Shown here: positions 36,170 through 62,153 of the stretch, in pieces
Position numbering within the stretch: the first letter of the stretch is position 1
Layout: the number at the start of each line of letters is the position of its first letter
NCBI GenBank assembly: GCA_018823285.1
Contig: JAHJIQ010000063.1
Location: 399-64,398 of the forward strand
DNA from: Pseudomonadota bacterium
GTDB taxonomy: Bacteria; Desulfobacterota; Desulfobulbia; Desulfobulbales; JAGXFP01
Direction: 5' to 3'
Length of the DNA stretch: 64,000 nucleotides
Program-made: the position numbers and the translations under genes
The notes under the pieces: generated by a model
Told to the model about the DNA's origin: nothing
The model's database searches: none
Seen by the model: the letters and a program-made list of their open reading frames with translations, nothing else

Positions 36170-36403
36170 TCAACTTTCAGAGTTTGGCTAATCTTTCGAT
36201 CATAAAGGGGTTTTGGCGATTTGTTCGAGTCTGTGTTCCATAAGAAGCCAGAAGCCAGGAGTCAGAAGCCAGGAGAAAAGCTTTAAAATCAGTCATTCTG
36301 GCTCCTGACTTCTGGCTCCTGAATTCTCATCCTGGAACGCCACTATGGCACTGAACCATTTTATGACATCAATCCAACAACAGAAGACAAGTCTGAAAGT
36401 TGA
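36170..36403 (+). mobile_element. MITE-like element, copy A (234 bp, diverged)
   Basis: 12-bp perfect TIR TCAACTTTCAGA/TCTGAAAGTTGA. Collinear with copies B and C. No target duplication visible. Confidence 0.85.
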
Positions 36404-36404
36404 T

Positions 36405-37229
36405 TCAAAAAACACTGCCGGGTTTCTTGGCGAGGCCGATCTCCTGGGTGACCTGGGTTGCCAACTCTTCTATTGATTTGCCGGTTGAATTGATGATCGG
36501 GATTTTTTCCCGCTGGAATATCTGTTCGGCCTGGGTCAGTTCTTCGGTACAGGTGGAAAGTTTCGCATAACGGCTGTCCGGGTAACGTTTTTCCCGCATG
36601 CCCCGCAGGTGTTCAGGGGTGGTGGTGAGGGCGACCGCCCGTTTCCGGTTCCGTTTCACGCCGTCGGGAAGGTCGAGCTTGCTCAAGTATTCGACGGTGA
36701 GAGGGAAATTGGCCGCTTTCAGGCCGAACTGGGTTGCCAGATAAACGCTGACCGGGGTTTTGCCGGACCGGGAAACACCGAGCAGGATCACATCGGCATC
36801 GTCAAATTCGTTGATCCGGGTGCCGTCGTCATGGTCCAGGCAGAAGTGGATGGCCTCAACCCGGCGGGCCATGGTTACGTTATCGCCATGCCTTGAAAAT
36901 CCCGGAACCCGAAGCGCCCTCGCTTCCAGGCAGTTTTCCAGCGGTTCCAGCAGAAAATCAAACACATCGAAAAATTCCACTTCCGGCGACCGGAAAACAT
37001 TCCTGACTTCCTGGTCCATAATGGTGCTGAAGACGATCGGGCGTCTGCCGAGAGACTGGGCAAGGATGTATTCGAGGGTTTTTTTTGCATCCTTGACGCT
37101 GCGCACGTAAGGGAATTTTTCTTCATGGAAGCTGATTTCGGGAAACTGGCAGAGCATCGACTGGGCCAGATTGGTGATCATGATCCCGGTGCTGTCGGAT
37201 ATATAATAGATATCTTTTGATTTCCACAT
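36405..37229 (-). CDS. ppsR: PEP synthase/PPDK regulatory protein (kinase/pyrophosphorylase)
   Basis: ISDSTG, HFCLDHDDG, LGVSRSGKTP, ANFPL and SIEELAT (DUF299). Confidence 0.95.
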   Translation of the reverse strand: MWKSKDIYYISDSTGIMITNLAQSMLCQFPEISFHEEKFPYVRSVKDAKKTLEYILAQSLGRRPIVFSTIMDQEVRNVFRSPEVEFFDVFDFLLEPLENCLEARALRVPGFSRHGDNVTMARRVEAIHFCLDHDDGTRINEFDDADVILLGVSRSGKTPVSVYLATQFGLKAANFPLTVEYLSKLDLPDGVKRNRKRAVALTTTPEHLRGMREKRYPDSRYAKLSTCTEELTQAEQIFQREKIPIINSTGKSIEELATQVTQEIGLAKKPGSVF

Positions 37230-37429
37230 GGTAAATTCCGAAAAAGATGGTTTATATGACCTGAATAATGACCGTACGGATCAGGCATGTTTTTCATTGA
37301 CTTGAACGGTTTCTGTTTTGTTATACTGAACAATAGCAAATTTAACAATCAGCTGAAAAATCATATTTTCTTTTTCTGCGGGGGAACTGGAATGAATGAT
37401 GCTTCTCTGACTGATATCCGGAGCCTGCC

Positions 37430-38233
37430 ATGAACCGTCATCAAGTTTCACTCCTGTTTCTTGCGCTTCTGTTTCTCTTTCCAGCCACGTCGTTTGGTGC
37501 GGCAACCCTTGAGATTCCCGGAACCGGCGATTCCCAGGCCCTCCTCAGGGATCTGGCGGCGGCCTTTAATGCCGGTCAGCAAGAGATTGAGGTTGTCATT
37601 CCCGATTCAATCGGTTCCGGCGGGGCGATTAAATCGGTGGCCGGCGACAAGAATGAACTGGGGCGAGTTGCCCGGCCGATCAAGAAAAAGGAACAGCGCT
37701 ATAACCTGAATTATTTGCAGTTTGCCGCATCCCCAGTGGTTTTCGCGGTAAGCGGCAATGTCGGCGGAGTGGACAATCTGACCCCGGAAGAGGCTCTGGC
37801 TGTGTACGCGGCAAAAACCACCAACTGGAGCGCTCTTGGCGGCCCTCCGGAGAGCATCTACCTGATCGGCAGGGAGCCCGGGGATTCGTCAAGAGAAGCT
37901 GTGGAAGAGATTGTTCCCGGGTTTGGCGGCATAGAAAATTATTCCGGGATTGTTGCCTATTCAACTCCTGAAGCTGTGGATATGCTGGCAACCCATGACA
38001 ACAGCATTGCCTATCTTCCTTTCAGTATGACTTCCGGCAGAAATGTCAGGGTTCTGAAATTCGGCGGGAAAGGACCTCTTGATCCCGGTTACCCCTTGCT
38101 CACGCCTTTCGGGATGGTCTGGAAGGGTAAAATGTCCGGCCCCGCAGCCGGATTCATGGACTTTATCTTCTCCGATCGGGGGCGAAAGATCATAACCGCT
38201 GCCGGAGCGGTGGCGGTTGCCCGGAAACCCTGA
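37430..38233 (+). CDS. PstS-like periplasmic substrate-binding protein, no ABC transporter adjacent
   Basis: Signal peptide ending SFG-A; SIGSGGAI, VARP and REPGDSSR motifs of the PBP_like_2 family. Confidence 0.8.
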   Translation: MNRHQVSLLFLALLFLFPATSFGAATLEIPGTGDSQALLRDLAAAFNAGQQEIEVVIPDSIGSGGAIKSVAGDKNELGRVARPIKKKEQRYNLNYLQFAASPVVFAVSGNVGGVDNLTPEEALAVYAAKTTNWSALGGPPESIYLIGREPGDSSREAVEEIVPGFGGIENYSGIVAYSTPEAVDMLATHDNSIAYLPFSMTSGRNVRVLKFGGKGPLDPGYPLLTPFGMVWKGKMSGPAAGFMDFIFSDRGRKIITAAGAVAVARKP

Positions 38234-38284
38234 TCCGGAGAGGGAATGATGTCTGAAAAAAGTCATACTGGGGGAAGCTGAATT

Positions 38285-61290: not shown

Positions 61291-61293
61291 AGC

Positions 61294-61389
61294 AGTGAAA
61301 AATGCAGAATGAAGAATGAAAAATGGGTGGATAAAGGGGCCAATCGATAGTAAAGATTTTTTCTGAATCCTGGCTCCTGGCTCCTGAAC
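61294..61389. repeat. Heptamer repeat tract after hslU (mismatched arms)
   Basis: AGTGAAA AATGCAG AATGAAG AATGAAA, then TTCTGAA TCCTGGC TCCTGGC TCCTGAA. Confidence 0.65.
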
Positions 61390-61409
61390 ACTTTATCCGT
61401 GAGTTGAAA

Positions 61410-61919
61410 ATGTACGAACACGATCTGAAATACTGCCCTGACTGTAACGATGAGTATCGGGCCGAAATCGAGAAATGCGGGATGTGCGGTGGTCCTCTTT
61501 TCACCGGGCTTGAGATGGAAGCGCGAAGCGCTGCCCGGAAGAAAAGGATGGCCGGGCCGGTTGCCGAACTGAGTATCGATGAGGAGCTGGTGGTGATCCG
61601 GCGGGGGAAACTTGCCGAGATCAAGGTCTTTGAAAAGCTCCTTGCCGAGCAGCATATCGGCACCCTTCTGGCCGGGGATGAGAATTCCTGCGGCAAGGGG
61701 TGTTGCGGCGGGAATTTCGACCTGGTGGTCAGAAGGGAAGACGCGGAAGAGGCGTCGCACCTGATCGACGAGGAGATCAGGCGCACCGCAATCGGTGCTG
61801 ACGGCAACTCCCATGGTGACGCGGTCTTCAACCCGGAAGTCGCCGAATCAACCTGCCCGGCCTGCGGCCATGTTTTCAAAACCGCGCCGGAATGCCCGGA
61901 TTGCGGCCTTTGTTTTTAG
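61410..61919 (+). CDS. Cys-rich protein: N- and C-terminal zinc ribbons around a DUF2007-like domain
   Basis: CPDC...CGMC, central SCGKGCCG, and CPAC...CPDC. Confidence 0.8.
   Translation: MYEHDLKYCPDCNDEYRAEIEKCGMCGGPLFTGLEMEARSAARKKRMAGPVAELSIDEELVVIRRGKLAEIKVFEKLLAEQHIGTLLAGDENSCGKGCCGGNFDLVVRREDAEEASHLIDEEIRRTAIGADGNSHGDAVFNPEVAESTCPACGHVFKTAPECPDCGLCF
61858..61919 (+). repeat. att-like direct repeat 1 (3' end of the zinc-ribbon gene)
   Basis: 55/62 identical to 62850-62911. Confidence 0.85.
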
Positions 61920-61920
61920 C

Positions 61921-62153
61921 TCAACTTTCTGAGTTATGTTAATCTCCCGATAATAAAGGGGTTTTGGCGATTTTTGCGTTCCTGTTTTCCACAACAAGGC
62001 AGAAGCCAGGAGTCAGAAGCCAGGAGAAAAGCTGAAAAATCAGTCATTCTGGCTCCTGGCTTCTGGATTCTGGCTTCTAATCATGGAATGCCGCCATGGC
62101 TTGTGATTGTTTTATGACAGCAAACCAATATCTTAGGCAAGTCAGAAAGTTGA
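61921..62153 (+). mobile_element. MITE-like element, copy C (233 bp)
   Basis: 12-bp perfect TIR TCAACTTTCTGA/TCAGAAAGTTGA, flanked by GTTTTTAGC and GTTTTTAGT (8/9). Confidence 0.9.

Follow-up and report, generated by a model that had tools for sequence, protein, structure and literature searches.

The window, which is a stretch of 64,000 nucleotides on contig JAHJIQ010000063.1 from a 3.9-Mb genome of an uncultured member of the Desulfobulbales, contains three related non-coding elements, referred to here as copies A, B, and C, the second of which is inverted. Their termini, end bases included, lie at positions 36169 to 36404 (A), 44383 to 44698 (B), and 61920 to 62154 (C) and have the general form C-TCAACTTTCTGA...TCAGAAAGTTGA-G, flanked by a 7-bp AT-rich target duplication. 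The features in and around the three copies are as follows.

36169 to 36404, plus strand: MITE copy A, 236 bp, of the subfamily with the TTGTCTTCTGTT right arm
36242 to 36326, no strand: central hairpin of A, made of CCAGAAG/CCAGGAG-type heptamers and their complement around a AAAAGCTTTAAAATCAGTCATT loop, read directly from the sequence
44376 to 44382, no strand: left 7-bp target duplication of B, TGAAGAT, within which the EAL-domain gene upstream has its TGA stop codon
44383 to 44698, minus strand: MITE copy B, 316 bp, inverted, with ends CTCAACTTTCTGG and CTTAACTTTCTGG
44500 to 44579, minus strand: nested module X unit in B, 80 bp, located in the loop of the heptamer hairpin, from the comparison of 35 copies
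44699 to 44705, no strand: right 7-bp target duplication of B, TGAAGAT
61913 to 61919, no strand: left 7-bp target duplication of C, TTTTTAG, whose final TAG is the stop codon of a zinc-ribbon gene
61920 to 62154, plus strand: MITE copy C, 235 bp, with the consensus end CTCAACTTTCTGA on both sides
62001 to 62079, no strand: central heptamer hairpin of C, with a stem of ∼25 bp, by folding
62155 to 62161, no strand: right 7-bp target duplication of C, TTTTTAG

A preliminary description of this DNA had located the three copies at these places, with boundaries that were off by one base at each end, and had mentioned C...G ends with a 7-bp duplication as an alternative. This alternative proved correct, with 18 copies in the genome showing a perfect 7-bp target duplication and 7 more matching at 6 of 7 positions. 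The perfect 9-bp repeat described around B is present but is not its true target duplication: given that the genome copies have their perfect 7-bp duplications directly outside the C...G termini, the real duplication of B is TGAAGAT, and the additional G and C represent terminal bases of the element itself together with a fortuitous match. The duplication of C is likewise perfect (7/7), while that of A is decayed (CAAATGA versus TCAAAAA, 3/7), and the right terminal base of A is T instead of G. Copy A, which is found at C63 36567-36802 (end-pair table of copies), starts with CTCAACTTTCAGA, and its right end, read inward, is ATCAACTTTCAGA; only chance open reading frames (ORFs) of 40 to 43 amino acids overlap it. 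The end variants are those initially described, namely, an A at both ends of copy A, a G at both ends of copy B, two positions further in, and the consensus in copy C.

The genome-wide search for copies that had been suggested at that stage revealed a family of ∼68 loci instead of only three, with 103 recognizable ends and 35 complete copies, and dozens of further copies were found in sister genomes. These end repeats go beyond chance, since the 13-mer end occurs 70 times in the genome, compared to 0 to 1 times for a reversed control; the 16-mer end was found in 72 of the 401 genomes of the order, with control matches almost nil. Three lone end matches in one relative, G002, were discarded as chance matches within coding DNA. 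The complete copies span 208 to 460 bp and contain no transposase gene, and their ends form inverted repeats that match perfectly over 13 bp and less well out to ∼24 bp. The duplications, mostly 7 bp and occasionally 6 or 8 bp long, have an A+T content of ∼80% in a genome whose GC content is 52.8%, and their consensus is close to TTAnTnA. In 14 of the 35 complete copies, the duplication contains or adjoins the stop codon of a long ORF, and in 22, such a codon is found within 20 bp. Together with the ends common to autonomous insertion sequences (ISs) and the empty orthologous sites described below, the size of less than 1 kb without a transposase gene, the inverted ends, the fixed duplication length, and the multicopy nature of the family are the features of bacterial MITEs, in agreement with the initial reading of these elements.

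Autonomous ISs of 1,535 to 1,540 bp carry the MITE-type ends of 13 to 17 bp. The partner IS as found across the order is 1,535 bp long, with perfect CTCAACTTTCTGACTTG ends and an ORF of 461 amino acids, which reaches 531.7 bits on the NCBIfam model NF049925 "IS4 family transposase" (cutoff of 250), also matches Pfam DDE_5 and DDE_Tnp_1, and contains a Y(2)R(3)E(6)K motif at residue 330 (YGKRWDVEVCFKMLK). The ISPepr1 subgroup of the IS4 family, described by De Palmenaer et al. in 2008 (PMC2266710), is characterized by a length of 1,500 to 1,600 bp, ends of the form YT-AA-YTT---A that start with 5′-CT, direct repeats of 7 to 8 bp, and AT-rich targets. The end CTCAACTTTCTGA agrees with this consensus at all eight conserved positions, including the 5′-CT start, and its positions 11 to 13 are the variable triplet of the published consensus (PMC2266710). 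The lengths of the ISs found here (1,535, 1,540, and 1,550 bp) also fall inside the range of the subgroup. Judged by these published features, the MITE ends appear to be those of the ISPepr1 subgroup. A clean direct duplication (6 to 7 of 7 positions) was seen in only ∼3 of ∼10 autonomous IS copies (7/7 in L031 and 6/7 in L032 and L022).

It had been noted earlier that the window holds no transposase, which is true, yet three other contigs of the same genome (C20, C41, and C42) end inside the partner IS. These contigs stop 136 to 146 bp inside an IS with the end CTCAACTTTCCGGGTTGAC, which encodes a transposase C terminus that is 54 to 55% identical to residues 421 to 451 of the partner. In the source metagenome, a contig of 1,540 bp matches this IS end with 0 differences and has the same 18 nucleotides inverted at its other end; its depth is 387 versus 48.7 for the unique flanks, i.e., ∼8× the genome depth. 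A second IS-sized contig of the metagenome (1,550 bp, depth of 329) is collinear with the IS family. The genome carries the partner IS, which is missing from the bin because its copies collapse into a 1.5-kb repeat contig on assembly. Thus, the genome search for a transposase with matching ends, which had been proposed together with the search for copies, led to an IS at contig ends, and contig-end analysis alone exposed it: a whole-protein search of the assembly with the partner transposase gave no match, the binned assembly contains no transposase ORF, and self-comparison of the assembly for IS-sized repeats retrieved none, which is explained by the ISs having been collapsed or left out of the bin. 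No contig end gave an IRL-side junction of the resident IS. The DDE_Tnp_1 (PF01609) matches in this genome and four relatives were also considered as partners and rejected; they correspond to an IS5-like fragment on C49 and to IS4-like elements of G006 and G008, none of which has CTCAAC-type ends.

Empty sites in relatives, for which the preliminary description had advised looking, were seen for all three copies. The site of B is empty in a related strain, where a contig of run X2 joins position 44373 to position 44697, skipping 323 bp (316 + 7), with 0 differences in 166 bp of one flank and 3 differences in 85 bp of the other. The site of C is empty in contigs of runs X2 and X3, which join 61911 to 62154 and skip 242 bp (235 + 7). 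For B and C, this evidence comes from near-identical strains, and for A, it comes only from G011 and G002, two relatives of the same family in which the site is without the element; among closely related strains, no empty A site was found, the flanks of A being outside the coverage of runs X2 and X3. The near-identical flanks in the X2 strain suggest a recent event at the B site.

The explanation that best accommodates these observations is that A, B, and C are, very probably, MITE copies moved in trans by a DDE transposase of the ISPepr1 subgroup of the IS4 family. This transposase is inferred to be the mobilizing enzyme because MITEs and ISs agree in their ends, in duplication length, and in target preference. 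The element consists of a shell, with IS ends of 13 to 17 bp (CTCAACTTTCTGA(G/C)TTG) and an arm of ∼70 bp per side, that surrounds a hairpin of slippage-prone heptamer repeats and, in many copies, also nested units of a second repeat. By analogy with the IS4 family, the transposase would bind both ends, the element would be cut out by cut-and-paste, and insertion would proceed via a 7-bp staggered cut. The insertions carry a 7-bp (rarely 6- or 8-bp) AT-rich duplication and are very often located right at a stop codon. Two observations on the resident IS count against this explanation. First, the MITE arms past ∼17 to 19 bp resemble no IS end sampled, those of the resident IS included, so the MITE is not a simple recent deletion derivative. 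Second, both ends of the resident IS read CCGGG, whereas B has CTGG and C has CTGA, so cross-mobilization would need tolerance at positions 11 and 13.

One could also imagine that the copies are dead relics moved by no current enzyme, with the empty sites being either ancestral or the product of hairpin-promoted precise deletions between the 7-bp duplications. We consider this improbable. It would fit with the arms being unlike the resident IS ends past ∼18 bp, with a binned assembly devoid of a transposase ORF, and with an identity of only 86 to 97% between nearest-neighbor copies, among which no identical pair exists. However, cut-and-paste makes no identical sister copies, so that divergence between copies is no sign of inactivity. 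Moreover, the genome has its own IS of this group, with perfect 18-bp ends and a depth ∼8× that of the genome, a perfect duplication is retained in 17 of the 35 complete copies, and the few flank differences at the empty B site point to a recent event.

The central heptamer hairpin recognized from the outset is real, with folding z-scores in copy C of −5.7 for DNA and of −7.1 and −7.4 for RNA of the two strands. Its arms differ between copies by slippage in unit number and register, and in some copies, such as the one of 460 bp on C62, the difference is confined to a single arm. Free inverted heptamer arrays are present in the genome as well. B exceeds A and C in length because it contains an 80-bp nested unit of module X, a separate and abundant repeat of 55 bp, for which the genome has at least 175 loci, 136 of them outside MITEs. 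The module X unit is hairpin rich and ∼55 bp long, forms head-to-tail arrays, nests within itself, and has inserted into the MITE several times, always at two recurrent sites adjoining AAAG. In other genomes, MITEs that share these ends have unrelated interiors. It is conceivable, although rather unlikely in our estimate, that the IS4-type shell is only a vehicle whose interior was colonized by two independent self-propagating small structured repeats. If module X were a site-specific mobile or templated-insertion element without a known enzyme, it would represent an undescribed kind of bacterial repeat, and the MITEs would be spreading it.

The strong folding on both strands, the 22 of 35 copies located no more than 20 bp from the stop codon of a long ORF, and the finding that some insertions are common to two species of a sister genus with the same duplication (G006 and G007) could be taken to mean that the host selects the element mainly for a structured RNA or DNA signal (for example, a 3′-end stabilizer, a terminator, or a small RNA), so that this function, and not selfish transposition, would account for its spread and conservation. 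We regard this as very unlikely, given that neither a match to a curated model nor a covariation-supported structure was obtained. In an Rfam scan of the window, tRNAs alone reached the gathering score, and the best subthreshold match was a chance hit to a miRNA model (21 bits versus 70). All seven sequencing runs listed for this organism are of DNA. The consensus fold of 37 copies had a covariation term of −0.09 kcal/mol, which is essentially no support. RNAalifold missed the central hairpin in this set because the heptamer arrays are out of register in the alignment. Several properties already mentioned also argue against a conserved functional structure, namely, the variation of the hairpin arms by slippage, the unrelated interiors of same-ended MITEs elsewhere, and the presence or absence of copies among near-identical strains. 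In addition, of the 12 copies next to a stop codon for which the flanking gene is unambiguous, 8 have the same orientation as the gene and 4 the opposite one, i.e., there is no clear bias.

The preliminary description had further proposed that the paired changes at the two ends of each copy imply either selection for end-to-end pairing or descent from distinct subfamilies. Of these two, descent finds support at the level of lineages, as matched pairs (T/T, C/C, G/G, and CCGGG/CCGGG) occur in MITE subfamilies and in autonomous IS lineages; at position 11, the IS lineages have T/T, C/C, or G/G, with two G/T exceptions. IS and MITE lineages thus differ in their bases at positions 11 to 13, mostly with agreement between the two ends. 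Copy-specific covariation, in contrast, is largely lost once the alignment is enlarged, which is an outcome that the preliminary description had listed as refuting. Among 71 complete copies, the private changes within the 13-bp ends are concordant in 4 cases and discordant in 64 (permutation P = 0.05), and both the A-type and the B-type (T11/G13) variants are found in other genomes on one end only, next to an ordinary partner end. Thus, the covarying ends appear to reflect mostly different element lineages and not a pairing mechanism, and this lineage history may possibly have been accompanied by coadaptation to the transposase of each lineage. The private A/A at position 11 in A and G/G at position 13 in B would most simply be explained by two independent hits each, at these hypervariable sites, in old lineages of elements moving by cut-and-paste.

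A process that keeps the ends of each copy identical, by copying a change at one end to the other, would offer a different account of the same pairs. Gene conversion or mismatch repair in a fold-back structure (cruciform or single-strand hairpin) or selection for end-to-end pairing could act in this way, and the whole element does fold as a long hairpin with its two ends paired. Copies A and B have a private change at the matching position of both ends, and in this genome alone, the 4 concordant private changes exceed the shuffled expectation (nominal permutation P = 0.011), with one subfamily contributing two of them (A at position 1 in C1 and C67). However, besides the predominance of unpaired changes and the single-ended variants in other genomes, the two arms differ at position 14, one having G and the other C, in 31 of the genome's 35 complete copies. 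This position is only 1 to 3 nucleotides away from the "covarying" sites, and a conversion tract or pairing selection should have erased the mismatch. Copy B is also discordant at position 3, and positions 11 to 13 are the nonconserved triplet of the ISPepr1 consensus (PMC2266710), so that repeated hits are to be expected there. On the basis of the larger alignment, physically or selectively matched ends appear largely refuted, and we consider them highly improbable.

With descent from distinct lineages as the preferred reading, covarying ends, which would be of interest as a mechanism, are without support in the larger data set. What emerges is that an abundant repeat family of uncultured Desulfobulbales can be filed under a known IS subgroup, with its boundaries fixed (C...G, 7 bp). 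The seeming absence of a transposase is a binning artifact, given that the IS resides in a collapsed 1.5-kb contig at ∼8× depth, which calls for caution when MITEs in metagenome-assembled genomes are claimed to be "orphans." Because the element is present at the B and C sites in some strains and absent in others, these sites provide ready markers for strain tracking. Finally, since insertions occur at stop codons and the duplication is able to supply a stop, the family may affect expression at the 3′ ends of genes.

Among known systems, the family resembles the ISPepr1 subgroup (PMC2266710) in its end consensus, the length of its ISs, its duplications of 7 (occasionally 8) bp, and its AT-rich targets, as well as in a partner transposase with the YREK motif and a score on NF049925. 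Unlike members of this subgroup, the window copies are non-coding and 235 to 316 bp long, have only ∼17 bp in common with the IS ends, and contain a heptamer-repeat hairpin and nested small repeats in their interior. In being non-coding, with inverted ends that resemble those of resident ISs and an interior of variable tandem repeats, the family is similar to BrickBuilt, a minisatellite-containing MITE of Porphyromonas gingivalis (PMC4596501). BrickBuilt, however, is built of direct 23-nucleotide units and has IS5-family ISPg-like ends and short irregular duplications, whereas the family described here has 7-nucleotide units arranged as an inverted hairpin pair, ISPepr1-type ends of the IS4 family, and a regular 7-bp duplication.

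The three copies of the preliminary description were confirmed on the contig that carries the window (C63 of genome G000):

36169-36404: MITE copy A
44383-44698, inverted: MITE copy B
61920-62154: MITE copy C

They belong to a family of ∼68 loci, as shown by a genome-wide BLAST search (3.94 Mb in 83 contigs). A search of the genome with the terminal 50 nt retrieved 103 MITE ends (57 "left" and 46 "right" arms), which paired into 35 complete copies of 208 to 460 bp. The 13-mer CWCAACTTTCYGA occurs 70 times in the genome versus 0 to 1 times for the reversed control. Most ends have a C just outside TCAAC. 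When the element is delimited as C...G, perfect 7-bp direct repeats flank 18 copies, and another 7 copies have repeats matching at 6/7 positions; 6-bp or 8-bp repeats occur in a few copies. This shows that the boundaries offered earlier as an alternative, C...G ends with a 7-bp duplication, are the correct ones. The 9-bp repeat reported around B is present, but the real duplication is the 7-bp TGAAGAT; the additional G and C are end bases of the element itself that have chance matches in the flanks. TTTTTAG flanks copy C on both sides, and the duplication of copy A has decayed. The duplications are ∼80% A+T, against a genome GC content of 52.8%, and the stop codon of a long ORF lies inside or touches the duplication in 14 of the 35 copies, B and C among them.

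The inverted ends read CTCAACTTTCTGA and continue with GTT in one arm and with CTT in the other; the two arms (∼70 bp each) are only weakly complementary. The center is a hairpin of CCAGAAG/CCAGGAG-type heptamers and their complement with a 22-nt loop. Folding z-scores between −5.7 and −7.4 indicate a strong fold of the element as DNA or as RNA, whichever strand is taken. The heptamer arms differ among copies in unit number and register, and changes confined to one arm occur, e.g., in the 460-bp copy on C62. A 79-bp minimal version in G006, a genome of a sister genus (locus L091, C30:43635-43713), consists of two terminal arm pieces alone, which shows that the central hairpin was not required for insertion.

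Many copies owe a greater length to one or more units of a second structured repeat of ∼55 bp, AAAGCTGAGTTGAGCAGCTGGCCTGCTCGTACGAAACTTATACCCGAAGGGTGAAA, referred to here as module X. Its units occupy two recurrent positions, one following CCCGAT in the left arm and the other within the hairpin loop; module X has entered the MITE at these two sites repeatedly. In one MITE left arm (G000 C75:1-172), a further repeated element, ATGTTAATCAGCGTGGAATAATGACCCC..., interrupts the sequence after CCGAT; contig C39 ends in this element as well. This spot in the arm is also favored by module X for entry. Module X has at least 175 loci in the genome, 136 of them outside MITEs, often in head-to-tail arrays of 2 to 4 units in intergenic DNA and with nested expansions at fixed internal points. 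Its loci include the following:

Window 44500-44579: unit in copy B, forming its extra 80 bp
G000 C64:35005-35144: further module X locus
G000 C62:52-260: further module X locus
G000 C48:45300-45480: further module X locus
G000 C19:94516-94757: further module X locus (there are many others)

Module X occurs throughout the bacterial family of this genome and in three additional families of its order. It is abundant in the sister genera and in three further genomes (G024, G036, and G021); some of the genomes rich in it have few MITE copies or none. No Rfam family matches it. We consider module X a more unusual item than the MITE family, and one that merits its own study.

Empty orthologous sites, which the preliminary description had proposed to look for, were found for all three copies. 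In related strains of two other metagenomes (X2 and X3), contigs join 61911 to 62154, skipping 242 bp at C (235 + 7), and an X2 contig joins 44373 to 44697, skipping 323 bp at B (316 + 7), with 0 differences over 166 bp and 3 over 85 bp in its flanks. The A site lacks the 236 bp in two relatives from the same bacterial family (G011 and G002), where the two flanking genes are contiguous (71% identity). Some insertions are common to two species of a sister genus (G006 and G007, with the same duplication), and nearest-neighbor identity among copies is 86 to 97%. Taken with the empty sites, this indicates that the family is old yet differs between strains, a pattern that fits cut-and-paste movement, the mode inferred from the IS4 family. 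Around the copies, the genes to the right of A and of B are 0.7 to 0.9 kb apart in relatives such as G009, G001, G005, G006, and G004 versus ∼8 kb here, so that ∼7 kb (about 37230-44380), including an EAL-domain gene ending in B's duplication, is lineage specific; this segment is present without the MITE in the X2 strain. The last ∼62 bp of a zinc-ribbon gene (61858-61919) recur ∼930 bp downstream (62850-62911) with 90% identity. Copy C lies between these repeats, directly 3′ of the first stop codon, and the ∼690 bp from C to the second repeat have no counterpart in any family relative.

Of 401 genomes of the order, 72 contain the 16-mer end of the MITEs. In some of these, end pairs lie 1535 bp apart and enclose a 461-aa ORF with a score of 531.7 bits against NCBIfam NF049925, "IS4 family transposase" (cutoff, 250); the ORF matches Pfam DDE_5 and DDE_Tnp_1 and contains the Y(2)R(3)E(6)K motif. 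Carriers are recorded as Desulfobulbales-type MAGs, Desulfurivibrio, and Desulfuromusa. No transposase ORF was found in the binned assembly of G000, but three of its contigs terminate 136 to 146 bp inside an IS ending in CTCAACTTTCCGGGTTGAC, and these ends code for a transposase C terminus 54 to 55% identical to residues 421-451 of the partner. Contig ends in repeated elements are as follows:

C20:18790-18928: 3′ end of ISPepr1-type IS
C41:113942-114077: 3′ end of ISPepr1-type IS
C42:1-146: 3′ end of ISPepr1-type IS
C63:1-170, upstream of the window: end of another assembly-breaking repeat
Ends of C13, C61, C30, C76, C78, and C79: ends of other assembly-breaking repeats

The latter belong to two further repeat families, with ends GGTTCATTCGTCTTTAAGTTGAAAGCC... 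and GGTTCATTCGTAAAAAAGTTGAAAATC..., in one of which the window's own contig starts; these families probably represent a pair of related ISs that belong to a different IS family. In the source biofilm metagenome (run X1, holding 85% of the window's sampled words), a 1540-bp contig shows 0 differences to the CTCAACTTTCCGGGTTGAC end and, at its opposite end, has these 18 nt in inverted orientation. Its depth is 387, versus 46.5 to 48.9 for unique flanking contigs, which implies about eight copies of the resident IS, provided that this contig comes from this organism alone. Another contig of IS size (1550 bp, depth 329) is collinear with the family, and a T-type relative is present at depth 17. 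No contig in the bin is shorter than 2178 bp, so contigs of 1.5 kb were probably excluded by a length cutoff. Given that three contigs stop inside the IS and that its complete form is found in the source metagenome only as this collapsed contig at ∼8 times genome depth, the missing transposase is an artifact of assembly and binning.

The preliminary description had also claimed that the ends of each copy covary, reflecting selection for end-to-end pairing or distinct subfamilies. Numbering from the terminal C, its variable site is position 11 and that of B is position 13. At the level of lineages, the pairing is real: position 11 is C on both ends in one MITE subfamily and T on both in the others, a separate MITE family in G006 and G008 (another relative) has CCGGG on both ends, as does the resident IS, and autonomous ISs are T/T, C/C, or G/G, with two G/T exceptions. 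At the level of copies, it is not supported, since private changes in the 13-bp ends relative to the subfamily consensus were concordant in 4 cases and discordant in 64 (71 complete copies from five genomes; P = 0.05 with right ends shuffled within subfamilies, and P = 0.011 when this genome is taken by itself). Among the four concordant cases, two involve an A at position 1 that one subfamily typically has. Neither the A-type ends of six other genomes nor the T11/G13 ends of seven were ever paired, and all five such cases with a readable partner end were discordant. Of the 35 complete copies in this genome, 31 have a G at position 14 of one arm and a C at position 14 of the other, which argues against both interarm conversion and pairing selection. 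Positions 10 to 12 form the unconserved triplet in the published ISPepr1 end consensus (PMC2266710). We conclude that the matched changes in A and B arose by coincidence at hypervariable sites and were conspicuous because both copies share one window.

Regarding function, no Rfam family matches the MITE, covariation lends no support to the consensus fold calculated from 37 copies, and copies show no clear bias in orientation with respect to the neighboring gene. In other genomes, MITEs that share these ends enclose unrelated interiors; some contain different hairpins, and others again contain heptamer hairpins. The best reading is a selfish element carrying variable hairpin cargo, with possible 3′-end effects on neighboring genes.

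The ISPepr1 subgroup of IS4 was defined by De Palmenaer et al. (PMC2266710) by a length of 1500 to 1600 bp, ends of YT-AA-YTT---A, the YREK motif, direct repeats of 7 to 8 bp, an AT-rich target preference, and 5′-CT ends. Every one of these features is found in the MITE and partner IS family described here. The MITE family is of an ordinary type and belongs to an IS subgroup that is already known.
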